This document shows, one piece after another, positions 2,596 to 63,653 of a stretch of DNA of 64,000 nt (positions within the stretch are counted from its first letter, which is position 1; the number at the start of each line of letters is the position of its first letter). Source of the stretch: Candidatus Spongiihabitans sp. (GTDB lineage Bacteria; Pseudomonadota; Gammaproteobacteria; Arenicellales; Poriferihabitantaceae); NCBI GenBank assembly GCA_965261425.1, contig OZ253452.1, positions 673,160 to 737,159 on the forward strand, read 5' to 3'. The translations under genes and the position numbers were made by a program. The notes beneath the pieces were generated by a model. The model was not told the DNA's origin and made no database searches. It saw nothing but the letters and a program-made list of their open reading frames with translations.

Positions 2596-2690
2596 CTTGT
2601 GCCCTGCGGGTGCTTGTGCCCTGCGGGTGCTTGTGCCCTGCGGGTGCTTGTGCCCTGCGGGTGCTTGTGCCCTGCGGGTGCTTGTGCCCT
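2596..2690. repeat. Tandem array of the 17-nt unit CTTGTGCCCTGCGGGTG (5 full copies plus a 10-nt partial)
   Basis: Direct reading: units at 2596, 2613, 2630, 2647 and 2664, with a partial at 2681-2690. All full units are identical and nothing separates them. Confidence 0.95.
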
Positions 2691-2727
2691 GATACTGTGC
2701 AAAAATCTAATATTCGTAGCTCCGTAG

Positions 2728-3323: not shown

Positions 3324-4937
3324 TTAGCGCGTAAAAACCAAGTCGGCGGGAATGGCAAAGCCGATGCCCTCTACATTCTCATCAACGAACTTAAAAGTCG
3401 TAATTCCGACCAAATTACCGTCGCTGTCAAACAAGCCGCCGCCAGATGAACCCGGGGATATGGCGGCATCGGTTTGCACAACCTGATAACCGTCTATTTT
3501 CCGCAGTTGCGAAACAAGCCCAGCGGACAAGGATAAATCTAACCCTTGCGGCGCGCCCAAACTATACACATTCTCGCCCACCCTGAGGGTCTCGTATTTT
3601 CGCATTGTTGCAGGAACACCCCATAAACCATCAACCTCCAACAAGCAAAAATCCTGCTCGGTATCGCTGTGGCGGATAACCGCCGTCAAGGGCGTTGTCG
3701 TATCGACTCGACGATTGTTGGCTTTATACACGCTAATATCGCCACCCTCATCCACCACATGGCAGTTGGTTGCCACCACATTAGGGCGCACAATCACACC
3801 GCTACCCTGGCTGTCGTTGTTCACAATCACAACCACCGACCGCCAGGATTTTTCAAAAACCTGCTCGGCAATATTGGTGCTTTTAGATGGCTCCGCCAAG
3901 GCAAAGTTGTGATCCAAGCCGGCGTTTGTAGCAGAATCTGCTTTGCCTTGTTCGATATCTTGCTCAATGGCTCGTAATCGCCGTGCCGCTTCACGGCGGG
4001 CTGATTTTATTTCTGCGGCATCCAGATGCCAGTTATTCTCACGCAAACTATTCGTCGCTAATTCATTGCCGTTTGCCTTGGCAATGGAAAACCAGATAAA
4101 TGCCTCACGCTCATCGGTAATAAATCCTTCACCATTCCAATACATCACGCCCAAATTATATTGTGCGCTCGCATCCCCCTGCTCTGCCGCCAGCCGATAC
4201 CAGCGTACTGCCTCACTAGCATCCTGAGTAACCCCTCTGCCATTAGCGTACATCAGGCCCAAATTAAATTGTGCATCCGCAACCCCCTGCTCTGCCGCCT
4301 TGCGATACCAGCGTACTGCCTCACTAGCATCCTGAGTAACCCCTTCGCCTTTCCTGTACATCCCGCCCAAATTATATTGTGCGCTCGCATCCCCCTGCTC
4401 TGCCGCCTTGCGAGTCCAGCGTACTGCCTCGCTATAATCCTGAATAACCCCTTCGCCATTAGCGTACATCAGGCCCAAACCATATTGCGCGTTCGCATAC
4501 CCCTGCTCTGCCGCCTTTTGATACCAGCGTACCGCTTCGCGCTCATCTTCGATAACCCCGTAGCCATTCCAATACGCAACGCCCAAATTATATTGTGCGC
4601 TCGCATCCCCCTGCTCTGCCGCTTTTTGATACCAGCGTACTGCCTCGCTAGCATCCTCAATAACCCCTTTGCCATTAGCGTACATCACGCCCAAATTATA
4701 TTGTGCCTCCGCATACCCCTGCTCTGCCGCCTTGCGAGTCCAGCGTACTGCCTCACTAGCATCCTGAGTAACTCCTATGCCTTCATGGTACATCACGCCC
4801 AAATTATATTGTGCATCCGCATCCCCCTGCTCTGCCGATTCGTATTGCGAACAGAAATATGTATTATCAGACGGGCATTCGGCATGGGCAGTGTTAAACA
4901 CCATAGCAATCAGCAGTATTAACAGACTTTTTTTCAT
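3324..4937 (-). CDS. Secreted Sel1-repeat protein fused to a trypsin-like (S1/HtrA-type) serine peptidase domain
   Basis: Signal peptide MKKSLLILLIAMVFNTAHA. Seven 36-aa Sel1 units (AEQGxxxAQYNLGxMYxxGxGVxQDxSEAVRWYRKA). The C-terminal domain carries the triad contexts TNCHVV, DFCLLEV and GSSGGGLF. Confidence 0.85.
   Translation of the reverse strand: MKKSLLILLIAMVFNTAHAECPSDNTYFCSQYESAEQGDADAQYNLGVMYHEGIGVTQDASEAVRWTRKAAEQGYAEAQYNLGVMYANGKGVIEDASEAVRWYQKAAEQGDASAQYNLGVAYWNGYGVIEDEREAVRWYQKAAEQGYANAQYGLGLMYANGEGVIQDYSEAVRWTRKAAEQGDASAQYNLGGMYRKGEGVTQDASEAVRWYRKAAEQGVADAQFNLGLMYANGRGVTQDASEAVRWYRLAAEQGDASAQYNLGVMYWNGEGFITDEREAFIWFSIAKANGNELATNSLRENNWHLDAAEIKSARREAARRLRAIEQDIEQGKADSATNAGLDHNFALAEPSKSTNIAEQVFEKSWRSVVVIVNNDSQGSGVIVRPNVVATNCHVVDEGGDISVYKANNRRVDTTTPLTAVIRHSDTEQDFCLLEVDGLWGVPATMRKYETLRVGENVYSLGAPQGLDLSLSAGLVSQLRKIDGYQVVQTDAAISPGSSGGGLFDSDGNLVGITTFKFVDENVEGIGFAIPADLVFTR
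4067..4840. repeat. Intragenic ~108-bp tandem DNA repeats encoding the Sel1 units
   Basis: Blocks such as gcccaaattatattgtgcgctcgcatccccctgctctgccgc recur at about 108/216-bp spacing with near identity. Confidence 0.85.
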
Positions 4938-4986
4938 GGTTTCCTCGTTATGGGCGGTAAATATGCGTTTTATTGTAACAAATATT

Positions 4987-5063
4987 TGATAATTGAAAAT
5001 TGAGAATTGAAAATGGACGGTAAATTGATAATTGATAATTGATAATTGATAATTGAAAATGAT
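4987..5063. repeat. Heptamer-periodic tandem repeats (ATTGAAA / ATTGATA variants)
   Basis: Direct reading: aattgaaaattgagaattgaaaat...aattgataattgataattgataattgataattgaaaat. Confidence 0.9.
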
Positions 5064-5160
5064 AGTTAGATTTTGAAAAGAATATTTGACTGATTTCCTG
5101 CTTCCGTGTGGTGACTACCGAAAGTGTGGCTTTGGCCGCGCCACAAACAAGCCGGACTTA

Positions 5161-5255
5161 TGTACAGGATGTACGGGCAAATAATTGCTCCTGCATTATT
5201 TGCACTTCCGCCATCCATGGCGGTCGTATGCCGATTTTGCAGGAGCAAAAATCGG
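5161..5255 (+). mobile_element. Hairpin-module miniature element, 95-nt form (45-nt core plus 50-nt module B at 5177-5226)
   Basis: Identical to the 45-nt copy at 20855-20899 except for a 50-nt block inserted between GTACGG and TATGCC. TA lies on both sides (5159-5160 and 5256-5257). Confidence 0.8.
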
Positions 5256-5429
5256 TAAAGTCCCGCTTCCGAGATTATGCGAGAATCCAACATTCGTAGC
5301 TCCGTAGGAGCGGTATCTTTCTTTTGTGTCGCTCCTACGGAGCTTTGGCTGTCTCATTTATTTGTGCTACAAAGGTGTCATCCCTACGGGATTTTACTCA
5401 ATTCTTAATTTTCAATTATCAATTAAATC

Positions 5430-5517
5430 GAGACTGTGTAAAAATCCAATATTAGTCATTCCTAACCCCCCTTGCCCCCCTTATCAGGGGGGAATTGAGT
5501 GGAAAGTCCCTCTGATA
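5430..5517. repeat. GAGACTGTG module plus the intact arm of a long palindromic repeat (CCTTGCCCCCCTTATCAGGGGGG...)
   Basis: 5463-5517 is the reverse complement of the sequence flanking the IS110 left end at 6868-6890. It contains the uninterrupted IS110 target string. Confidence 0.75.
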
Positions 5518-5607
5518 AGATACTGTGTTAAAAATCCACTTATTTTCAACTTTTTTTCGGCTCATTGTTAGAATGACTTTGCCGGCTGGGATTCCACCAC
5601 AAACGCG

Positions 5608-6602
5608 CTATCTGCAAGCATAATTGACATCAAAAGGCTGTTCTGATTTTAATACCCCATAAGATATAACCAGTAGTTTCCGCATCACCGCGCACACTGC
5701 CACTTGTTTAGGTTTGCCTTTATCAAGTAGCCTATTGTATAAATTCTGCGTGACTGGATTGTGTCGCGTTGCCGTCAGTGCTGGCATATAGAGAGACTTT
5801 CTCAGGCGTTTGTGCCCTATTTTTGACAGACTACTCTTGTTGATACTACTGCCAGACTGGGTTATCTTCGGATTCAACCCAGCAAAACTGGCCACTTGCT
5901 TGGCGTTATCAAATGACGATATATCCCCCATATAGGCGAGGATAGCCCAAGCCGTTTTGTTGCCAATCCCGCCAATGCTGGTCAATAACCGTACTTGTTG
6001 ACGCAACACAGAATCGCCTACAACCAAGTCCTTGATTTCCTGTTCAACAATCACTATTTGCCGACAGATGTACCGAATCATCGCTTTGATTGATTTGCTG
6101 GCGGTCTTATTCAAACTCACTGGCAAACGATTCTTCTCTTGGGTTGATTGTTTGTTTAACTGCTCCAAGCGCGTCATCAGGCATTGTAACGCAACACTGG
6201 CTTCGCTTTTGGGCTTGAACAGATTTTTCTCTAACTCACCTTTGGCCACAATATGTTGACAATAACGCGCAATGCTGCCAGCACTTGTGCCCTGTGGGTA
6301 TCGGATTTATCCGTTTTATTACGCAACATTTCCATCTTGACAAACGCATGGGTTCTCATTGGGTTCGCCACAATCACCTGGTCGCCTGAGCGATGTAAAT
6401 AATACGCCAAAGCAACCCCATAAACGCTGGTGGCTTCCATACAAAACACCCGCTCTTGCGCTGCGTCCAATGATTTTAGCCATTTGGACAAGGCTTTGAA
6501 GCCTTTATGATCATTAGCAAAAGACGGGTTGTGGTCAACACCCTCAACGCACACAGCACCATCAAAACGTGCTTTAGATATATCAATACCGATACATAAC
6601 AT
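5608..6602 (-). pseudogene. IS110-family DEDD recombinase/transposase split by a 17-nt insertion
   Basis: The N-terminal ORF (MLCIGIDISKARFD...RNKTDKSD) and the C-terminal ORF (...LLTSIGGIGNKTAWAILAYMGD..FAGLNP, Transposase_20-like) are in different frames. Deleting 6283-6299 fuses them into about 325 codons. Confidence 0.9.
6283..6299. repeat. 17-nt cassette ACTTGTGCCCTGTGGGT (equivalently CTTGTGCCCTGTGGGTA at 6284-6300) inserted in the IS110 transposase gene
   Basis: It matches the tandem unit at 2596-2690 and the copies at 44113 and 44282. Removing it gives ...KTDKSD|AGSIARYCQ... in frame. Confidence 0.85.
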
Positions 6603-6867
6603 AACATTCTCCGGTTATAATTGTAGATAGGTTGGATCATTTAACTTCGGTGCATCCTCGTACTATTCGTGCTCAGATTTTTGGTCTTGCACCAGATACT
6701 GTCCGCACTTGATGAAGTTAAAGCGGGTAGTAGGTGCGATACCTTGTCAACAAGTTTAAAAACTTACTGGGGGCTACTGCATCACTACTACCCATCCAAC
6801 CGCCGTTGGATAGGGTCCATTAAAAACCACTAAACGAGTTGATAATTTACCCGATTGGGATCATACG
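6603..6867 (-). ncRNA. Putative IS110 guide (bridge-type) RNA region in the non-coding left end
   Basis: A 265-nt non-coding segment lies upstream of the recombinase, as in IS110-subgroup elements. A long-range stem (6725-6736 paired with 6783-6793) encloses a hairpin and loops. This call comes from the family architecture, not from a covariance model. Confidence 0.35.
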
Positions 6868-6888
6868 AGGGGGGCAAGGGGGTTGGGT

Positions 6889-6915
6889 TTTCAATTCTCA
6901 ATTCTCAATTCTCAA
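6889..6915. repeat. Heptamer tandem repeat (TTCTCAA) x3, overlapping the cobS stop codon
   Basis: Direct reading: ttcaattctcaattctcaattctcaa. Confidence 0.85.
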
Positions 6916-7640
6916 CTTGCAACAACCAATCCAAGCAACACAAAAGTTTCGGTGGTTTCGACTAGCGCACCGTAAATATCACCAGTCGTACCATGAAGTG
7001 GCTTTATAAAATAGAGATAAATAGCTGAAAACGCTATCGTACTTGCAATGACGGCAACCATAAACGCCGATAGCGAGAGCATCCCAAGCACGACCGATAA
7101 AAGCAGTGCCGATATGCCAATCGCCTTGTGTGATAAGCCGGTTTGCAACCCAGCACCACTGCCATTATGACGGATATAGGGGATGGTGCAAATAACCAGA
7201 CTCAAAACGATACGCGCCGCCACCGGTGCGAATACCAACCACATCCAATGCCCCTGTTGCAACAAGATGGACAGGGCGGCAAACTTTGCCAGCAATACCA
7301 ACACCACGACCACAATCGCGCCGACCCCGCAGGCGGTATCTTTCATAATCTCCAGCATGCGCTCCGGCGTATGTCCGCCCATCCAAGCATCGCCACAATC
7401 TGCTAAGCCATCTAAATGCAGTGCGCCGGTTATGCCGCTCCAGACGCTCAACAGGATAATCGCAGTGATGGCTGGGGACAGCCAATGCCCCAAACCCCAA
7501 GCAATCGTGGCAAGAATAACCCCGATAAGCATCCCCACCGGCGCATACCAGCACACCGCATCGCCAGATAAACCCGATTGCCGTTTTTTGCCAAGCGGCA
7601 ATCGGGTCAAGAATTGAATGGCATACAGGAATGAATTCAT
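6912..7640 (-). CDS. cobS: adenosylcobinamide-GDP ribazoletransferase (cobalamin synthase)
   Basis: 242-aa polytopic membrane ORF. N-terminal FLTRLPLG and the HLDGLADCGDA motif are typical of CobS. Confidence 0.9.
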   Translation of the reverse strand: MNSFLYAIQFLTRLPLGKKRQSGLSGDAVCWYAPVGMLIGVILATIAWGLGHWLSPAITAIILLSVWSGITGALHLDGLADCGDAWMGGHTPERMLEIMKDTACGVGAIVVVVLVLLAKFAALSILLQQGHWMWLVFAPVAARIVLSLVICTIPYIRHNGSGAGLQTGLSHKAIGISALLLSVVLGMLSLSAFMVAVIASTIAFSAIYLYFIKPLHGTTGDIYGALVETTETFVLLGLVVAS

Positions 7641-7651
7641 CGCTAACGGTA

Positions 7652-8302
7652 TTATGAAAGGACGCGGCTCGAATTATGGCTGTCGAGTTGAAACCAGTCG
7701 GCACTATTTTCCTGATGATAGGCGATGATGCGACTATGACAGGCATACGGGACGCTAAAACTAAAAAGCACACTCGGATCGAGCTTAAAAATGCTGGCAA
7801 AAATCGCTCTTATCACGCCACCGTGAACAATCAATAATATTCGCTTGCTTTTGTGTTGATTGATTAACTCGCACCATGATTGGGTAATACGATGTAGAAA
7901 GTCGCCATATTGATCGCCGCCATGCGGGGCAGGAGAATCGGGTTGGGTCAGCCATGCCTGCCATTGTCCGGGATATAGAGTGGTAATTTCATCAAATGAG
8001 CGACCTTCCCATTGTCCAAAATCGACTTCCGCGAAGCCGTTTTCAATGACGCATTCAATCGATAAACGCCGACTCAGGTGTTGGGCGAATTCGGCACAGC
8101 GTTTGCGCGGCGAAGCGATACACACATCCCACTGCGCTCCCTGCTGCAACAGGTGGTCACATTGACCCTCTAGATGACTCCATCCGCTTGCCGATAGCGG
8201 CGGGTCGGTAACCCCACAAATCACATTACCCAGAACATGCTCGCCATGTCGTAATAAATCAACTTCGGTGCGGCTTGTGGTTGCCGGCTCAGTATCGGGC
8301 AT
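7652..8302 (-). CDS. cobC: alpha-ribazole phosphatase (histidine phosphatase family)
   Basis: The RHGE catalytic motif (VDLLRHGEH), its size and its position between cobT and cobS. Confidence 0.75.
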   Translation of the reverse strand: MPDTEPATTSRTEVDLLRHGEHVLGNVICGVTDPPLSASGWSHLEGQCDHLLQQGAQWDVCIASPRKRCAEFAQHLSRRLSIECVIENGFAEVDFGQWEGRSFDEITTLYPGQWQAWLTQPDSPAPHGGDQYGDFLHRITQSWCELINQHKSKRILLIVHGGVIRAIFASIFKLDPSVLFSFSVPYACHSRIIAYHQENSADWFQLDSHNSSRVLS

Positions 8303-11179: not shown

Positions 11180-11376
11180 AGTGTTATTTTTAACTTAAAG
11201 AATAAGCTTTAATTATAGAAACTGAAAACAGACGGGATTATACCCGCCAAACCCAAAGCAGTGTTAAAAATACTGGAATCGGTCGATTCGTTCAATACTC
11301 TTAGTCGTTTTATTTATATAAATCAATGTGTTTAGATGTTTTTAATGGCTGACTAATTACGCATTACGAGTCGTTT

Positions 11377-11506
11377 GAGACTGTGCAAGAACCCAAATTC
11401 CGTCATTCCCGCGCAGGAGACTGTGCAAAAAACCAACATCCGTCATTCCTGCACCGACCCCGTCTTTCCTGCGAAAGCAGGAATCCAGTAAAATAGCCAA
11501 ACCTGC
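11377..11506. repeat. Mosaic intergenic repeat (two GAGACTGTGCAA modules plus CCTGCGAAAGCAGGAATCCAGTAAAATAGCC module)
   Basis: The modules are shared with 15026-15149, 58951-59074 and others. Confidence 0.85.
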
Positions 11507-11601
11507 ACTTCCGAAATTCCCCTGCCCCCGATAGATTAAGAAAGAACGATGTGTTATTGTTCTTATTAAATCTATCATCGTTTATGTGAGGAAAATTTAT
11601 A

Positions 11602-15025: not shown

Positions 15026-15149
15026 GAGACCGTGCAAAAATCCAACATCCGTCTTTCCTGCACCGACCTCGTCTTTCCTGCGAAAGCAGGAATCCAGTAA
15101 AATACGCAAACCCGCAAGGGTTTTCGGTTTCAATTTTCAATTTTCAATT
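15026..15149. repeat. Mosaic intergenic repeat ending in a heptamer run (TTCAATT x3)
   Basis: Shared modules. It contains the hairpin AAACCCGCAAGGGTTT between the convergent malic-enzyme and iolE genes, which could act as a bidirectional terminator. Confidence 0.8.
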
Positions 15150-17960: not shown

Positions 17961-18071
17961 GATTGATAATTGATAATTGATAACTGTCCACTGACAACTA
18001 TCTTTTTTTACTGGATTCCTGCTTTCGCAGGAAAGACAGAGGTTCGGTTCTTGCACAATCTCAAACGACTC
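17961..18071. repeat. Heptamer repeat (ATTGATA x3, then ACTGTCC ACTGACA) followed by mosaic repeat modules
   Basis: Direct reading, followed by the shared TTACTGGATTCCTGCTTTCGCAGGAAAGAC module. Confidence 0.85.
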
Positions 18072-18084
18072 TCGTAATTCGTAA

Positions 18085-20004
18085 TTATGACGCTTTGCAT
18101 TGCCAACAACAGCCCATCAGCCGCTGATAACTATCGGCTATTTCATCAACCAATTGAGTATCATCAATCATTCCACCCAACCAAGCCTTTGTCGATTGTG
18201 CAAAAACAGTGCTATCCATCATAAATCCTTTCACTAATGGGAAATTGGCTACGTCATTAAAACTTTGCGCCAAAGATTGCTCAAGTGGAGCCAATCCTGA
18301 AACAATAATTCCTCTGCAATAAGAATCATACCGAGCGATGATTTTTGTTACGTCATCCAAAATCACTTTGTTTTGCAAAGGTATCGTCCACCAATCAGGA
18401 TAAACCCCCAGATGATAGAAACGACTGATTGTGCGGGCTAAAACCGACTGATTGATTGTGCGATTTTCTGGGGTGATGATGTCCAGCAATAATTCATGTT
18501 CCGTTTGAATGCAGGCATCATAAATTTGTTTTGCCCTGCGCTCTTGGGTCAAGCGCAATTCGATTGCATCGTCTGGATGATAAAATATCTGACATTTGAC
18601 CACATGCTCGTGTGCCCAAGTGGCTAAATGTGCGGCAACATTATCACCCGCTTCAAACTCTAATGGGCGGCTACCCGACTGCTCAACCGGACGTGTAATC
18701 CACAAACCGCTACCGGTGGCTTCATTGAGTACATTCTGACCATATTTATCATCGCACAATATGCCCGCAGTAATGTCGCCAGAGGGATGCCGCGCAACTT
18801 GTTTGACGGCTTCAAAAATCAATCGTTTCAAGCGAGGAATCTGCGCATCGTTACCTTGTATTTTCATCGCTAAATCGAATAATTGCTGATCATCAAATGC
18901 AATCACGCCTAAATTTGCACCACACGGCGGATGTTTTTTCCGAGTGGTCACTTTGTGCAGGCGGTTCAAATATAGGCTTTGTGCAGGTTGCTTGATTTCG
19001 TCAGCATGTTGGATGTAATAATCAAGCTCCTGCCAGCTCGGCATTGCCGGCGCACAACCATGCCTCGAAACCACCAGCGCCCCACACGCATTGGCATAGG
19101 TGCAGCATTTTTCATCGCTTTCTGAATAAATCCAGCCACGCAAGAAGCCGCTAAAAAAAGCATCGCCAGCACCAAGCACGTTCAACACTGGCACATCAAA
19201 CCCGCCAAAATTCAATCCATCATCAAGACAATCGCCAATATCTTCGTTAAATACCGCACATCCTGAAGCCCCTCTTTTGACGACCAGAGTTGCTTTAGTC
19301 ATGTTGCGAATATGTTTTAGGCATTTTGTAATATCACTGAAACCGCCAGCAATGCAGAACTCCTCTTCGGTGCCAACAATCAAATCAAACAATGGCAAAA
19401 TACCTTGCAAATGCGTGCTAACAGTCGCGCTGGAAACATAGCGATTTTCACCCGCACCTTTTTTAGTTAAGCCCCAAAGCACGGGGCGATAATCAATATC
19501 AAGTACCGTTTTTGTTCCATTTTTCTTGGCGAGATCAATCGCATAACGACACACTTCAGAGGAATGCGCCGATGAAAAATGGGTGCCGGTAATCGCCAAC
19601 ACTTTCGACGAAGCAATAAATTTTTCATCAATAAAAGCGGTATCAATCGCCATATCCGCTACTTGTTCGCGATAAAACAGCAACGGAAAAGTGTCTATAT
19701 CCTTAATCCCCAACAACACCAAACCGGTCAATCGTTGATTATCAAATTGAATGTGACTCACATCCACACCAGCATCTGCTAATTCCTGTTTAACAAAATG
19801 ACCCATTTGTTCATCACCAACGCATGTCAGCATGGCCGATTTCAACCCCAATCGTGCTGTGCCAAAAGCAACATTGCCCGATGAACCACCTAAATACTTG
19901 GCAAAAGAATGAACATCCTCTAGTTTACTGCCAATTTGCTGGGCATATAAATCAACCCCAGCACGACCCAGACAAATGATATCTAATGTTTTATTCATAT
20001 CCAT
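18085..20004 (-). CDS. iolC: 5-dehydro-2-deoxygluconokinase fused to a DUF2090/IolJ-like C-terminal domain
   Basis: The N-terminal half is a PfkB kinase (DIICLGRAGVDLY..., GAGDAF). At 639 aa its length fits the bifunctional IolC form. Adjacent to iolD and iolE. Confidence 0.8.
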   Translation of the reverse strand: MDMNKTLDIICLGRAGVDLYAQQIGSKLEDVHSFAKYLGGSSGNVAFGTARLGLKSAMLTCVGDEQMGHFVKQELADAGVDVSHIQFDNQRLTGLVLLGIKDIDTFPLLFYREQVADMAIDTAFIDEKFIASSKVLAITGTHFSSAHSSEVCRYAIDLAKKNGTKTVLDIDYRPVLWGLTKKGAGENRYVSSATVSTHLQGILPLFDLIVGTEEEFCIAGGFSDITKCLKHIRNMTKATLVVKRGASGCAVFNEDIGDCLDDGLNFGGFDVPVLNVLGAGDAFFSGFLRGWIYSESDEKCCTYANACGALVVSRHGCAPAMPSWQELDYYIQHADEIKQPAQSLYLNRLHKVTTRKKHPPCGANLGVIAFDDQQLFDLAMKIQGNDAQIPRLKRLIFEAVKQVARHPSGDITAGILCDDKYGQNVLNEATGSGLWITRPVEQSGSRPLEFEAGDNVAAHLATWAHEHVVKCQIFYHPDDAIELRLTQERRAKQIYDACIQTEHELLLDIITPENRTINQSVLARTISRFYHLGVYPDWWTIPLQNKVILDDVTKIIARYDSYCRGIIVSGLAPLEQSLAQSFNDVANFPLVKGFMMDSTVFAQSTKAWLGGMIDDTQLVDEIADSYQRLMGCCWQCKAS

Positions 20005-29367: not shown

Positions 29368-29485
29368 GATACTGTGTCAAATCTTTATGGGCAACCCTTG
29401 CGGGTTTGGCTATTTTACTGGATTCCTGCTTTCGAGACTGTGCAAAAAACCAATATTCGGCATTCCTAACCCCCCTTGCCCCCCT
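29368..29485. repeat. Mosaic intergenic repeat ending in the IS110 target string CCTTGCCCCCCT
   Basis: GATACTGTG.., CAACCCTTGCGGGTTTGGCTATTTTACTGGATTCCTGC, GAGACTGTGCAAAAAACCAATATTCGGCATTCCTAACCCCCCTTGCCCCCCT. The stem-loop followed by a T-run after iolB may terminate transcription. Confidence 0.8.
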
Positions 29486-29909
29486 CGTATGATCCCAATC
29501 GGGTAAATTATCAACTCGTTTAGTGGTTTTTAATGGACCCTATCCAACGGCGGTTGGATGGGTAGTCGTGATGCAGTAGCCCCCAGTAAGTTTTTAAACT
29601 TGTTGATAAGGTATCGCACCTACTACCCGCTTTACCGGTTTTTGCTCCTCGACAATTGCTCCTGCATTGTTCTAATAAGTTACATCCATGTAACGATACA
29701 AAACCGGCATACGACCGCCATGGATGGCGGAAGTGCAAATAATGCAGGAGCAATTATTTGCCCGTACATCCTTGTACATTAACATCATCAAGTGCGGACA
29801 GTATCTGGTGCAAGACCAAAAATCTGAGCACGAATAGTACGAGGATGCACCGAAGTTAAATGATCCAACCTATCTACAATTATAACCGGAGAATGTGATG
29901 TTATGTATC
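29486..29909 (+). mobile_element. Second IS110-family copy: left end plus the first 4 codons only (truncated)
   Basis: Apart from the 145-nt insertion it is nearly identical (a handful of mismatches) to the reverse complement of 6591-6867, including ATG TTA TGT ATC (MLCI). Homology stops at 29909. Confidence 0.9.
29635..29779 (-). mobile_element. Hairpin-module miniature element, 145-nt form (core plus modules B and C) inside the IS110 left end
   Basis: It is absent from the otherwise near-identical copy at 6603-6867. The filled site reads CCCGCTT-TA-[145 nt]-TA-ACATCATC and the empty site reads CCCGCTT-TA-ACTTCATC. Confidence 0.9.
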
Positions 29910-29935
29910 AGTAGTCATCATCATAGGAGGTATTA

Positions 29936-30442
29936 ATGACAGTAGAGATTATGCGAACGGACAAGTCGGCCTGCGATCTTCGGCGCGCCGCTGCGGCGTG
30001 CAGGGACGCGAAAGCGGCCCGACGGATGCTGGCGATTGCGTTGATTTTGGACGGCACTGACCGCAAGACGGCGGCCGCGAACTGCGGGATGGATCGCCAG
30101 ACGTTGCGTGACTGGGTACACCGTTACAATGACGCGGGGATTGAGGGTCTCTCGAACCGGCGTTCGCCAGGACGGCAGCCCCTGCTCAGCGTGGCACAGA
30201 AGGCGGAGTTGGCATCGCTTGTGCGTGAGGGGCCGGATCCCGAAACGGACGGCGTGGTGCGCTGGCGGCGCATTGACCTCAAGCGCAAGATTGAGGAGCG
30301 CTTTGGCGTTGTCATGCATGAGCGGACCGTTAGCAAACAACTGGTAAAACTTGGTTTTCGACGCTTGTCTGTGCGCCCGCAGCATCCGAAATCCGACCCG
30401 GATGCGCAGGATGCGTTTAAAAAAACTTCGCTGCAGAGGTAG
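29936..30442 (+). CDS. IS630-family transposase OrfA (HTH / DNA-binding part)
   Basis: Winged-helix/HTH region (…RQTLRDWVHRYNDAGIEGLSNRRSPGRQPLLS…) typical of IS630/Tc1 N-termini. It ends 17 nt after an A7 run. Confidence 0.85.
   Translation: MTVEIMRTDKSACDLRRAAAACRDAKAARRMLAIALILDGTDRKTAAANCGMDRQTLRDWVHRYNDAGIEGLSNRRSPGRQPLLSVAQKAELASLVREGPDPETDGVVRWRRIDLKRKIEERFGVVMHERTVSKQLVKLGFRRLSVRPQHPKSDPDAQDAFKKTSLQR
30419..30425 (+). promoter_or_regulatory. A7 slippery run: candidate -1 ribosomal frameshift or transcriptional slippage site joining OrfA and OrfB
   Basis: GCG TTT AAA AAA ACT in frame 0. Slipping back one base gives …KK-NFAAEV… and continues into the DDE domain. Confidence 0.6.
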
Positions 30443-30999
30443 CGGCCGTTCTGCCCAAAACGGCCTGCGGCAAACCATTGGAGATTTGGTTTCAGGACGA
30501 AGCTCGTGTGGGTCAGCAAGGGACGCTGACACGTATATGGGCCGAACGGGGAACCCGGCCGCGTGCGCCGCGTGATACACGTTATACGTCGGGCTATATC
30601 TTCGGCGCGGTTTGTCCCGAACGCGCCGAGGCTGCTGCGCTGATCATGCCGTATGCGGACACGTCCGCTATGAATGCACATCTGTGCGAGATCGCCAGGA
30701 CGGTCGCGGCTGGGGCCCATGCCTTGCTCATCCTCGACGGTGCAGGCTGGCACGGATCAGCAAAACGGGAAGTGCCAGACAACATCACCCTGCTCAAACT
30801 CCCGCCCTATGCGCCAGAACTCAACCCGATGGAAAACGTTTGGGCCTACCTGCGCGCCAACAAGCTGGCAATCTCTGTGTTTGAATCCTACGATGAGTTC
30901 GTCGACAAATGCTGCGATGCCTGGAATTTCTTCGCAGAGGACAAACAGGCAATCACATCAATTACATCACGTAATTGGGCCAAAACAGTCAATCAATAG
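30424..30999 (+). CDS. IS630-family transposase OrfB (DDE domain), -1 frame relative to OrfA
   Basis: From AAC at 30424 the -1 frame reads NFAAEVAAVLPKTACGKPLEIWFQDEARVGQQG…LILDGAGWH…PPYAPELNPMENVW, which carries the DDE triad contexts. An OrfA-OrfB fusion would be about 355 aa. Confidence 0.85.
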   Translation, partial: NFAAEVAAVLPKTACGKPLEIWFQDEARVGQQGTLTRIWAERGTRPRAPRDTRYTSGYIFGAVCPERAEAAALIMPYADTSAMNAHLCEIARTVAAGAHALLILDGAGWHGSAKREVPDNITLLKLPPYAPELNPMENVWAYLRANKLAISVFESYDEFVDKCCDAWNFFAEDKQAITSITSRNWAKTVNQ

Positions 31000-42897: not shown

Positions 42898-43605
42898 TAC
42901 GCACTCCAATTGTTTAGGTTAAATTATATTTCACTTGATGATATTTATTTCACAAGCGGATTGTAGTTTAGGAGGCAAGTTGAGTCAAGCCCTTTTTCAA
43001 GAATGTTAGCCCAAAGCAGTAATGTCCCCTTTTGACTTCTTCAGGAGCGGTGCGGCGGGCTCACCGAGCGAGGGTTATGACAGAGGAGATAATTACATTG
43101 AGCCATGCAGATGAGCTGGGCAGAACTTGACCGAGTATCGGTTATTCATTCCATTATCGGGTGCCGGCGAGACCAGCACAGGCGGCGCGGCAACTACACT
43201 TAGGTCTCCGGCAGGTAAAACGCTTAACCCACGCTTATCGAGACTGTGGTGCGGCTGGACTTGCCTCCAAGCGGCGTGGGTGCCCGGCAACGCCATTGGT
43301 GATGAGTTGCGCCAACAGGCACTCGCCATCATCAAGACGCACTATGGTGATTTTGGGCCGACTTTCGCGCACGAGAAGCTCACCGAACTGCATGAGTGCC
43401 ATTTCTCGGTGGAGACATTACGAAAGTGGATGATTAAAGATGGGTTGTGGTTGGGGAAACAGCGTAAAAGAGTAGCCATCCACCAAAGCCGGTCTCGGCT
43501 GGGCGAGCTGGTACAGATTGATGGATCACCGCATGATTGGTTTGAGGGGCGCGCACCTAATTGCACTTTAATTGTCTTTATCGATGATGCGACCAGTCGG
43601 CTATA

Positions 43606-43748
43606 TGTACAGGATGTACGGGCAGATAGCTGCTCCTGCATTATCTGCACTTCCGTCTTCCATGACGGTCGTATGCCGGTTTTGCATCGCTACATGGATG
43701 TAACTTAGTAGGGCAATGCAGGAGCAATTGCCGAGAAGCAAAAACCGG
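43606..43748 (+). mobile_element. Hairpin-module miniature element, 143-nt form (core plus diverged modules B and C) inside the transposase ORF
   Basis: It has the same module order as 29635-29779. Removing exactly 43606-43748 rejoins …DDATSRLY|LALHFAPTETT… in frame. Confidence 0.85.
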
Positions 43749-44112
43749 CCTGGCTTTGCATTTTGCGCCCACAGAGACCACTCAATCGTATATGGAAACC
43801 CTCCATCAGAAACTTGAACAGCATGGCCGCACAGTCGCTATTTACAGCGATAAGCACAGTATCTTTCGGGTCAATCATCCCCAAAATAAAGAAATAGCAC
43901 GAGGGCGAATTAACCCAATTTACCCGCGCACTCAAAACCCTAGATATTGAGCCTATTCACACCAATACCACGCAGGACAAAGGGCGGGTAGAACGTGCCA
44001 ATAAAACGCTGCAAGACCGACCGGTTGTCGATCCGCGCTTACAGGGTATCAACTCTATTGAGCAAGCAGATGCCTTTTTGCCACAGTTTATTGACGACTA
44101 CAACCAGCGTTT

Positions 44113-44129
44113 TACCCGCAGGGCACAAG
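44113..44129 (-). repeat. 17-nt cassette (TACCCGCAGGGCACAAG, the reverse complement of CTTGTGCCCTGCGGGTA) inserted in the ISNCY-like ORF
   Basis: The upstream frame (…FIDDYNQRF) and the downstream frame (AVTAQHTDNAHRALL…) differ by exactly this 17-nt block. Confidence 0.8.
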
Positions 44130-44281
44130 TGCCGTTACCGCGCAACACACCGACAATGCACATCGTGCGCTATTGCACAGCGTCGAGGAGCTTAAACTGA
44201 TCCTCTGCCGGCACCATCAGCGTAAACTGTCTAAGAATTTAACCTTATCATTTTGTAACACCGAATATCAGCTGACTGGCT

Positions 44282-44298
44282 CTTGTGCCCTGCGGGTA
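44282..44298 (+). repeat. 17-nt cassette CTTGTGCCCTGCGGGTA inserted in the ISNCY-like ORF (opposite orientation to 44113)
   Basis: After …NTEYQLTG the frame breaks. Removing the block gives …LTG-YGKGYRLMR…. A separate 1-nt indel near 44325 then leads into ATITLCEDG…. Confidence 0.7.
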
Positions 44299-44733
44299 AC
44301 GGCAAGGGCTATCGTCTGATGAGGAGCGACCATCACGCTCTGCGAAGACGGTGCTACGGGTTTGGTTACATTGCTATACAAAGGCAAGGCATTGACTTAT
44401 CGAACGCTCCAAAAGGGAAAGGCCGCCGTTGTGATTGCCGATGATAAGACCGTTCATAACCACGTTGAGCCAAGCACTTCACCGACAACAAAAATTCACT
44501 TAGAAACCCGCACCAGATCATCCATGGCGGAGACCATTAACCCGTTATTCAACCAATACTGCCCCATAATGAATATAAAAAGGGGACATTACTGCTTTGG
44601 GTTGACACTATTTTGAAGTTGAAAATTACGACCCTTGTTTATGGTAAATCTGTTTTATTCTCCGTGTCCTCTGTGCCCTCGGTGTCGCATCTTTTAGAAA
44701 ATCTTGTTCATCCTGTTCATCCATGTAAATAGT

Positions 44734-44782
44734 GGAAAACCCTTGCGGGTTTGTTTGTTTTACTGGATTCCTGCTCCCCGCC
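44734..44782. repeat. Mosaic repeat module (GGAAAACCCTTGCGGGTTTG…TTTTACTGGATTCCTGC)
   Basis: The module is shared with 29391, 63175 and, in reverse, 15100 and 59055. Confidence 0.8.
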
Positions 44783-44808
44783 TATGCTTATAATCCATAT
44801 CATGTAAT

Positions 44809-58950: not shown

Positions 58951-59074
58951 ACCCGTCTTCCCCGCGTAGGAGACTGTGCAAAAAACCAACATCCGTCATT
59001 CCTGCGAAGCCTGTCCCCGCGCAGGCGGGGAGCAGGAATCCAGTGAAACACACAAACCCGCAAGGGTTTTCCGC
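58951..59074. repeat. Mosaic intergenic repeat (GAGACTGTGCAAAAAACCAACATCCGTCATTCCTGC, GC hairpin, GGAATCCAGTGAAAC…AAACCCGCAAGGGTTTTC)
   Basis: Modules shared with the other mosaic repeats. Located between the divergent argS and fbpA genes. Confidence 0.85.
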
Positions 59075-59150
59075 ATGGAACGCGCCCTATGGGTTCTTCT
59101 ACAGTCTTGCCACACTTCCGACAATGACGCAAAGGTTTAACAATATAATT

Positions 59151-63132: not shown

Positions 63133-63328
63133 GCGACTGTGCAAGAAACCCACGCTAAGCATGTGTTACATGCGGAAAACCCTTGCGGGTTTGGCTATTT
63201 TACTGGGTTCCTGCTTTCGCAGGAATGACGCATATTGGATTTTTGCACAGTCTCTTCCGCAGGAATGACGGACTAGGTTGCTTCTCAATTATCAATTATC
63301 AATTTTCCATTTTCAATTTTCAATTTCC
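63133..63328. repeat. Mosaic intergenic repeat plus heptamer runs (CAATTAT x2, TTTCAAT variants)
   Basis: GCGACTGTGCAAGAAACCC…GGAAAACCCTTGCGGGTTTGGCTATTTTACTGGGTTCCTGCTTTCGCAGGAATGACG…TTTTTGCACAGTCTC…, followed by ctcaattatcaattatcaattttccattttcaattttcaatttcc. The hairpin and T-run just after fbpC could terminate transcription. Confidence 0.85.
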
Positions 63329-63653
63329 AATAAGTTATGCTACAGTAACACCGTCAGTGAGGTGTTTACACTCCGCAAATAAGTCGCACAAATAACCCAT
63401 TTAACTGGAGGAGATTCCGAATGAAATCATTGTTTACCATAAAAACCCTTAATAATCATATAGTTGCCCCCCCGACATTATGGCAGTCTTTAGCCAATCT
63501 TTGTAATTACAAAAACACTCTCTCTCTCCTTTCAACAAAGATAGTAAAAAAAATAAAAACACATTGCTGACAAGCAGAGTAGCTTCCAACCTCCAACCTC
63601 CATTCTCAATTAAATAAACTATCTTTGGAGCAATAATTTTCAATTCCAAGACG

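Follow-up and report, generated by a model that had tools for sequence, protein, structure and literature searches.

The nearest precedent for the sequence treated here comes from Nostoc punctiforme, where Elhai and colleagues reportedly described, in 2008, small dispersed repeats (SDR1-8) of 21-27 nt that are both dispersed and in tandem and contain hairpins. These SDRs are said to be nested in other repeats, in mobile elements and in the HIP1 palindrome. We analysed a stretch of 64,000 nucleotides (hereafter the window; contig OZ253452.1, positions 673,160 to 737,159) from Candidatus Spongiihabitans sp., a sponge-associated gammaproteobacterium, in which a sequence of 17 nucleotides (the 17-mer) interrupts a transposase gene of the IS110 family of insertion sequences (ISs) and recurs at further positions. 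Like the SDRs, the 17-mer is a tiny, sequence-defined unit far below the size of a miniature inverted-repeat transposable element (MITE), occurs dispersed and in tandem, can form a short hairpin, encodes no protein, and is inserted in other repeats, mobile elements and palindromes; the likeness is one of description. It differs from the SDRs in its length, which is just below their range, in its non-cyanobacterial lineages, and in being documented as a frame-breaking insert of transposase genes, with empty-site controls (L116 and L119; L numbers denote the loci compared with the window). A preliminary description of the window had held that the 17-mer belongs to no standard class that can be named. 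Indeed, the defining features of ISs, MITEs, repetitive extragenic palindromic sequences (REPs), CRISPR arrays and introns were looked for and none of these classes fits, but the SDRs of the Nostocaceae do provide a precedent. Outside that family, small dispersed repeats have been reported to be absent (PMC2884548, PMC5861425).

REPs measure 20-40 nt, are extragenic and carry a GTAG or CGTC tag at one end (PMC3733652), and they move as inverted doublets, or REPINs (PMC3116915). The 17-mer shares with the REP/REPIN system, which is served by HUH transposases of the REP-associated RAYT type, the character of a short non-coding hairpin repeat with some clustering and a presumed mobilisation in trans on single-stranded DNA. 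Unlike REPs, however, it ends in CTTG.../...GGGTA without a tag, has a palindrome of 4-5 bp, lies inside open reading frames (ORFs) and does not form inverted pairs of fixed spacing; no RAYT gene is present in the window. IS200/IS605 elements and palindrome-associated transposable elements (PATEs) resemble the 17-mer in lacking terminal inverted repeats and target duplication and in sitting seamlessly next to a short preferred sequence. Recognition by IS200/IS605 is hairpin-based, the target being chosen by pairing to a guide at the hairpin foot, and the first four bases of the 17-mer likewise tend to be complementary to its flank. IS200/IS605 elements and PATEs have two different hairpin ends (the left end, LE, and the right end, RE), are at least ~100 nt long, show a bias for the lagging-strand template and need a strict target of four or five nucleotides, 3' of which they insert, whereas the 17-mer has one weak 4-bp hairpin, a loose target and no visible skew bias (15/33 by a crude proxy). 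As MITEs do, it behaves as a non-autonomous, multi-copy sequence that lands in ISs, but it has neither the terminal inverted repeats nor the target-site duplications of these 50-500-nt elements. CRISPR arrays differ from its tandem array, in which the units are directly adjacent, with a period of 17 and no spacers. The Rickettsia palindromic elements, which Ogata and colleagues are said to have described in 2000, are reportedly palindromic, selfish repeats of 100-150 nt whose in-frame insertion leaves the host protein alive; the 17-mer, too, is found inside protein-coding genes, but it shifts the frame and kills the gene. A literature search for the 17-mer sequence and for short inserts in methanotroph transposases found no description in the papers covered, and to our knowledge no widespread miniature insertion-element family with this 17-mer has been described before.

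The interrupted IS110 gene consists of the following features:

5430 to 6873, minus strand: IS110-family insertion sequence with the insert (alignment of the window, L118 and L116; NCBIfam NF033542, 233 bits)
6231 to 6602, minus strand: N-terminal ORF fragment of 123 aa, made of 101 native DEDD/RuvC-like codons and 22 out-of-frame codons through the insert
6284 to 6300, plus strand: the 17-nt insert, variant V1, reading CTTGTGCCCTGTGGGTA on the plus strand and TACCCACAGGGCACAAG on the IS110 coding strand
5608 to 6249, minus strand: C-terminal ORF fragment of 213 aa with the Transposase_20 domain; its native frame extends upstream to 6282

The outer ends of the IS (5430 and 6873) are approximate, being placed where the alignment of the three copies breaks off. 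The junction on the coding strand reads ...AAT AAA ACG GAT AAA TCC GA/TACCCACAGGGCACAAG/T GCT GGC AGC ATT GCG..., and since a T at both boundaries leaves an ambiguity of 1 nt, positions 6284-6300 and 6283-6299 are equivalent descriptions of the insert. Removal of the 17 nt fuses both fragments, as had been proposed, into a single ORF of 325 codons with the canonical IS110 motif NKTDKSDAGSIARY, which scores 233 bits (cut-off 140) against the NCBIfam profile 'IS110 family RNA-guided transposase' (NF033542). IS110 homologues carry PF01548 and PF02371, and the repaired 325-aa ORF fits this one-ORF layout of DEDD_Tnp_IS110 and Transposase_20. We aligned ten homologues (56-98% identity) and found each to be one ORF of 321-339 aa with no gap over the junction, so neither the same extra residues nor a lineage with normally separate ORFs, both of which the preliminary description had named as possible objections, was encountered; D98, D101 and A102 are invariant among the ten. 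The closest homologue, P0001 (98% identical, 325 aa; its 90% cluster holds 127 member sequences), is encoded on a 15-kb contig, L116, which carries an intact copy of the same IS at ~97% nucleotide identity overall. Substitutions aside, exactly these 17 nt set the two genes apart; there is no other indel, and comparison with this empty copy shows no target-site duplication at the insert. The 17 nt are thus confirmed as a true insertion and as the sole indel or frame-breaking lesion of this IS110 gene.

The same defective gene is present at more than one place. One metagenome assembly has two loci that code for precisely this 123-aa N-terminal product, the codons read through the insert included. 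One of them, L117, is the window's own locus (99.96% identical, insert present), and the other, L118, is a different locus, with genes for methylmalonyl-CoA mutase and formate-tetrahydrofolate ligase as neighbours. The filled copies of the window and L118 are a single base apart inside the gene; in a three-way alignment 29 differences unite them and separate them from the empty L116, while the other two groupings have 11 each. This sister relationship indicates, as the simplest history, that a single insertion would have entered one IS copy and that the defective IS would then have been copied to a second site, presumably by transposase supplied in trans from the many intact copies.

In the window as a whole, eight matches to the 17-mer are found at no more than 3 mismatches, against 0.11 expected. 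Besides the IS110 insert they belong to the following features:

2596 to 2691, plus strand: tandem array of 5.6 units of CTTGTGCCCTGCGGGTG (Tandem Repeats Finder: period 17, 100% matches, score 192)
43127 to 44620, plus strand: ISNCY-family transposase pseudogene, host to two 17-mers, a 145-nt MITE-like insert (43605-43748) and further frameshifts
44113 to 44129, minus strand: solo 17-mer, CTTGTGCCCTGCGGGTA on the minus strand; removal gives ...DDYNQRF/AVTAQH...
44282 to 44298, plus strand: solo 17-mer in opposite orientation to the copy at 44113; removal gives ...EYQLTG/YGKGYRL...

When both 17-mers are removed from the degraded ISNCY gene, a single alignment to the ISNCY profile of NCBIfam, covering positions 212-344 of its 368, crosses both junctions, and the gene has lesions beyond its two cassettes. 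The array lies in the intergenic DNA upstream of uvrB, 86 nt from the start codon (2510), and is identical in L117. The UvrB protein itself is identical to one encoded on a 2.92-Mb contig, and its nearest named relatives are those of Candidatus Spongiihabitans (88-89%), which places the host among the sponge-associated Gammaproteobacteria. No 17-mers were found in the uvrB upstream regions of two relatives, where broken synteny leaves no direct comparison of the array. The recurrence of the 17-mer at the array, at 44113 and at 44282 was correctly noted in the preliminary description; its statement that within the window the sequence occurs in transposase ORFs only is limited to the three solo copies, because the array lies in intergenic DNA.

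The 145-nt repeat found in the ISNCY pseudogene has further copies. In the window it occupies 29635-29779, 43605-43748 (inverted) and, in part, 5147-5241, and in L118 it lies at ~5724-5869. One copy is in the ISNCY pseudogene; others (the partial copy in the window and that of L118) are in the 5' non-coding end of IS110, the region that encodes the guide (bridge) RNA. A second IS110 left end, truncated to the non-coding region and the first 15 nt of the gene (29471-29913), is likewise interrupted by this repeat, and the ORFs that follow it (29933-30753) have no Pfam match.

Across genomes, the element has the consensus YTTRTGCCCTGYGGGTA and two main variants, beginning with CTTGTG (V1) and TTTATG (V2). 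V2, TTTATGCCCTGYGGGTA, was met unsought in the same loci of Methylococcales as V1, and there are occasional variants with a different loop. A third variant, TTTGTGTCCTGTGGGTA, was seen at 5993-6009 of L116, in intergenic DNA beyond the left end of the intact IS110 copy and ~150 nt away from it. Searches of Rfam gave a tRNA (406-479) as the sole match in the window and none at the 17-mer; among ten 17-mer-bearing loci, those with the Bacillota elements described below included, there was no match at the element.

We scanned one genome per species with the 16-nt core CTTGTGCCCTGNGGGT and obtained at least 119 matches in at least 115 stretches. By our own arithmetic ~1,100 chance matches to the core are expected over the whole collection, so that the composition of the sample is the informative figure. 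The full sequence CTTGTGCCCTG[T/C]GGGTA was present in 63 of the 119 matches listed, against 14.9 expected (P = 3e-26). Its share among these listed matches was 30/34 in Methylococcales (Methylomonas, Methylobacter, Methylovulum, Methyloglobulus and Methylomicrobium), 6/7 in sponge-associated Gammaproteobacteria and 2/2 in Gallionella. Some of the copies in Bacillota and Spirochaetota are likely genuine, and a metagenome-assembled genome (MAG) of Lachnospiraceae (L084) has an array of three units. A scan of viral contigs gave 10 matches, which is about the chance number, mostly from one phage lineage and one repeated element.

In several Bacillota the identical 17 nt form a conserved hairpin (CUU-G-UGCCC-UGN-GGGUR-A-AAG) inside a larger dispersed element of 200-350 nt. 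This element is present between genes in multiple copies, contains a covarying helix and often a terminator, and belongs to no Rfam family; it occurs in the halophilic or alkaliphilic genera Alkalibacillus, Virgibacillus, Alteribacillus and Salsuginibacillus and in Kroppenstedtia. We considered whether it might be a riboswitch and rejected this, as its downstream genes are unrelated to each other. No connection could be made between the Bacillota element and the solo 17-mers. Its loci are:

L057, 4916-5152, minus strand: Bacillota element
L058, 3459-3695, plus strand: Bacillota element
L095, L114, L090, L010, L004, L051, L086, L078, L026, L032, L098, L006, L061, L064 and L065: Bacillota element

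The preliminary description had also called for a wider search in which the contexts are tabulated. We deleted the element from each copy, sought the longest ORF spanning the junction and confirmed the families by profile searches. The hosts belong to eight confirmed IS families (IS110, ISNCY, IS3, IS5, IS1595, IS1, IS4 and IS200), with ISL3 probably a ninth. In the loci below, deletion of the element restores the ORF (for the ISNCY gene of the window, the junctions):

IS3 (three lineages): L005; L021 and L100; L113
IS5: L016, L027, L055
IS1595: L020
IS1: L045, L074
IS4: L045
IS200 (Y1_Tnp): L076
ISL3 (weak match): L104
IS110 and ISNCY: the window

Transposase genes account for ~18 of the 49 distinct sites; the remainder, arrays among them, are intergenic, unassigned or in other palindromic repeats; an example of nesting in a palindrome is L103, cattcccg/17-mer/cgaaagcgggaatc. 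Single IS genes can hold several inserts. In L076 (Methyloglobulus MAG; minus strand, 6500-8000) three of them lie within the ~430 nt of an IS200-type tnpA, the gene of a Y1 HUH transposase, and without the three (16 + 17 + 17 nt) it encodes a complete 143-aa IS200 TnpA with no other lesion. The IS1595 gene of L020 has two, 76 nt apart, and the IS3 elements of L113 and L100 have three and two, respectively. Neighbouring 17-mers are mostly in direct orientation, at spacings that vary from 34 to 687 nt.

In three different IS3 elements the 17-mer lies within, or at the edge of, the programmed-frameshift heptamer A AAA AAG:

L100, 3303-3319: 17-mer at the IS3 heptamer
L082, 2205-2221: 17-mer at the IS3 heptamer
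L113, 3460-3476, minus strand: 17-mer at the IS3 heptamer

In L100 the insert and a 1-nt deletion together bring OrfA and OrfB into one frame. The idea that a 17-mer at the slippery site generally fuses OrfA and OrfB was dropped, since L100 needs the separate 1-nt deletion and the read-through in L113 meets a stop. An intact IS3, L119, is empty at both of the positions that are filled in L100, L021 and L082. Among the best 80 metagenome matches to the intact IS3 OrfB (187 kb, all of them intact loci) there was no 17-mer, a result that yields no frequency for it because the best matches kept were intact copies.

At more than 40 independent sites, spread over many genomes, the element has the same ends, and there is no duplication at any of them. 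For the target we used 39 distinct V1 (CTTGTG) sites, oriented on the CTTG strand:

position -3: G in 19/39
position -2: C in 27/39 (T in 8)
position -1: A in 20/39 or T in 14/39
position +1: T in 26/39
position +3: purine in 27/39
position +4: G in 22/39

The loose consensus of the target is thus GC(A/T)/T(A/T)RG, with the slash at the insertion point. V2 favours C at +1 (7/10) and differs in this from V1 (Fisher p = 1e-5). The flank at +1 to +4 tends to be complementary to positions 4 to 1 of the element (2.41 pairs, against 1.73 +/- 0.15 for random tetramers), and because the flank complements the first four bases, the integrated element and its flank can extend the hairpin, as they do in the Bacillota element. 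The centre of a pre-existing palindrome was the target at 4/49 sites, against 1.3 +/- 1.0 at random positions.

One position appears to have been used twice. The element of L100 (Methylomonas fluvii) and that of L021 (M. rivi) sit at the identical point of an IS3 integrase domain, in the same orientation, and their flanks are 14% different, with a nonsynonymous divergence (dN) of 0.07 and a synonymous divergence (dS) of 0.59 (dN/dS 0.12). In a neighbour-joining tree with 47 intact homologues, L100 and L021 each pair with a different intact IS3 protein, and L021 is nearer to the empty L119 (89.1%) than to the filled L100 (85.8%). Near the junction the two filled copies resemble each other no more closely than each resembles the empty one, and there is no shared tract. 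The tree and these junction-window identities argue against an ancestral insertion shared by L100 and L021 and kept by selection. We favour a hot spot filled independently, because a target preference exists; it is also possible that an old insertion was lost seamlessly in some lineages.

We regard the 17-mer as probably, though by no means certainly, a dispersed insertion element of very small size, without coding content of its own, whose movement depends on a sequence-specific activity acting in trans. Its insertion with empty sites to compare, its constant ends, the lack of duplication, the target preference and the distribution over lineages are observed, and of the readings offered in the preliminary description, the extremely small hairpin-type mobile sequence is the one best matched by these findings and by the more than 40 sites. 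We infer that a trans-acting, sequence-specific enzyme, not encoded by the 17-mer, moves it. A copy would enter DNA as a unit whose length and ends do not vary, without target duplication, preferably at sites that loosely resemble GC(A/T)/T(A/T)RG. One such event would have put an active IS110 transposase gene out of frame at codon 101/102, and the disabled IS110 would later have been copied to a second locus with transposase from intact copies. Copies would persist where the harm is small, in IS genes, intergenic DNA and other repeats, and might also stack head-to-tail as arrays. As for the chemistry, our guess, and a weak one, is a cleave-and-join reaction on single-stranded DNA of the HUH/Y1 type (IS200/IS605 TnpA, RAYTs), because such enzymes join seamlessly without duplication, recognise small hairpins and pick targets via a guide at the hairpin foot. 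The small hairpin might then be the handle, with the 5' CTTG pairing with the four bases after the insertion point.

Several results weigh against a mobile element of this kind. The proposed hairpin, earlier given as a 5-bp stem with a triloop, is possible as a small structure, but only 4 bp are predicted, with the marginal stability of -1.3 kcal/mol as DNA (z = -2.2). The Watson-Crick partner, C, occupies +1 in 1/39 V1 sites, where T is favoured, so base pairing is not the whole rule. Orientation relative to the local GC skew shows no bias (15/33, with skew over 8 kb as a crude proxy), and elements of the IS200/IS605 type are expected to show one; the missing second hairpin, the loose target and this absence of skew bias all speak against the HUH guess in particular. 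No mobilising gene was identified in the window, which holds housekeeping genes and IS remnants only. As most copies were retrieved by an exact pattern, their conservation and apparent youth cannot be judged from the sample, and gain or loss between near-identical strains was not directly observed.

It is also possible, if rather unlikely, that the 17-mer arises by templated insertion, in which a polymerase or reverse transcriptase copies a short template (an array or a motif-bearing small RNA) into a nick or a stalled 3' end and then returns to its original template, by template switching or an addition like that of telomerase, leaving one or several 17-nt units. The unit does occur both alone and head-to-tail (in the window array and as three units in L084), target duplication is absent, and the hairpin of the structured, multi-copy, RNA-like Bacillota element could serve as a template. 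In addition, because the 5' flank (G)C(A/T) is like the 3' end of the unit, GTA/GTG, the target resembles a unit-unit junction. Switching at microhomologies should, however, vary the end points, whereas more than 40 sites have one and the same phase; it predicts TA in the flank where CA is preferred (27 C against 8 T at -2), and neither a reverse transcriptase nor a template RNA was found in the window. A different proposal, to which we give little weight, takes the association with ISs as mechanistic: transposase genes or transposition intermediates would be the target of a parasite of ISs or of a 'sterilising' system, whether this belongs to the host or is selfish. All three solo copies of the window are in IS genes, as are the ~18 of 49 distinct sites elsewhere; IS genes are struck repeatedly (three times in L076 and L113, twice in L020, L100 and the ISNCY gene of the window), the A AAA AAG heptamer was hit in three different IS3 elements, and an identical IS3 position is filled in two non-sister lineages. 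Multiple hits in otherwise intact transposase genes lend some support to the preliminary description's idea of a host mechanism disabling transposases, but many copies lie outside ISs, in intergenic DNA, in arrays or in hairpin repeats. Moreover, the best 80 intact IS3 loci have no copy, the unrelated transposase families have no recognisable feature in common, and selection against hits in host genes, together with amplification of dead ISs in trans, would alone enrich IS contexts. We know of no candidate machinery that could aim the 17-mer at transposase genes. That it is delivered preferentially into ISs, perhaps while these are excised single-stranded or circular transposition intermediates, and acts as a 'sterilant' or hyperparasite across unrelated IS families and phyla, seems doubtful to us; if the 17-mer can also be taken out again precisely, this would account for one IS3 site being filled in lineages that are not sisters.

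The remaining explanations fare worse still. If a larger mobile element had been excised imprecisely, the 17 nt would be its fused ends (CTTGTGCC... and ...CTGYGGGTA), and the absence of duplication, the identity of the sequence wherever it is found and the presence of the motif in the 200-350-nt Bacillota element might be read in this way. Yet searches for the half-sites in the sampled loci found only variants of the small element and no pair of halves with a longer insert between them, and excision footprints usually vary, whereas length and sequence are uniform here; arrays and two coexisting variants are not expected either, and we consider such an origin very unlikely. It is hardly credible, in turn, that the split is harmless or normal, that is, a usual two-ORF layout, or one from which a ribosomal frameshift or hop, or removal from RNA, gives full-length transposase. 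The element is nearly free of stop codons in all frames, more than one locus has a filled IS copy, and L100 and L021 combine their dS of 0.59 with a low dN/dS, but the low ratio follows from recent and independent insertions into functional lineages. Against it, the close and distant homologues are all single ungapped ORFs, the intact copy lacks the 17 nt, the junction has neither a slippery heptamer nor matched take-off and landing codons, and the element is found in both orientations within genes. An artefact of sequencing or assembly (an adapter or a chimeric join) is suggested by the shortness of the insert only, and we hold it to be extremely improbable: the insert is also present in the independent assembly L117 and at the second locus L118, copies occur in isolate genomes and MAGs of many laboratories, with record and contig names that suggest different assembly pipelines, and the family is taxonomically concentrated and has a target preference.

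The window is rich in other repeats. An intergenic family of 40-100 nt, 80-97% identical and in both orientations, and short intergenic arrays of A/T-rich heptamers (ATTGAAA, TCAATTT, TCAATTC, ATAATTG), often beside IS ends, were noted; the latter call to mind the heptamer repeats seen in cyanobacteria and large sulfur bacteria. A unit of 108 nt is repeated 6.5 times at 82% identity (4141-4837) inside a Sel1/TPR-trypsin gene (3324-4937).

11354-11507, 15026-15125, 18006-18087, 29393-29434, 44734-44783, 58953-59081 and 63165-63272: 40-100-nt repeat family
2728-2758, 4982-5064, 5398-5425, 6891-6915, 15128-15149, 17962-17983 and 63285-63331: heptamer arrays

Mobile DNA is normally thought to need either a gene for its own enzyme or two recognisable ends of tens of bases. 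The 17-mer is among the smallest insertion elements seen, and a cleanly inserting unit of 17 bases, with the same sequence in distant lineages and repeated knock-out of transposases, challenges the lower limit of size. If it is moved by an enzyme, the substrate barely exceeds the enzyme's footprint, which would bear on HUH and strand-transfer chemistry and possibly on the engineering of small scarless insertions. In genomes, the cassettes make split 'pseudogenes' that annotation pipelines misread, and as a simple marker they allow the history of IS copies to be traced. Should it be true that ISs are preferred targets, the 17-mer would represent a new kind of interaction that restrains transposon activity.

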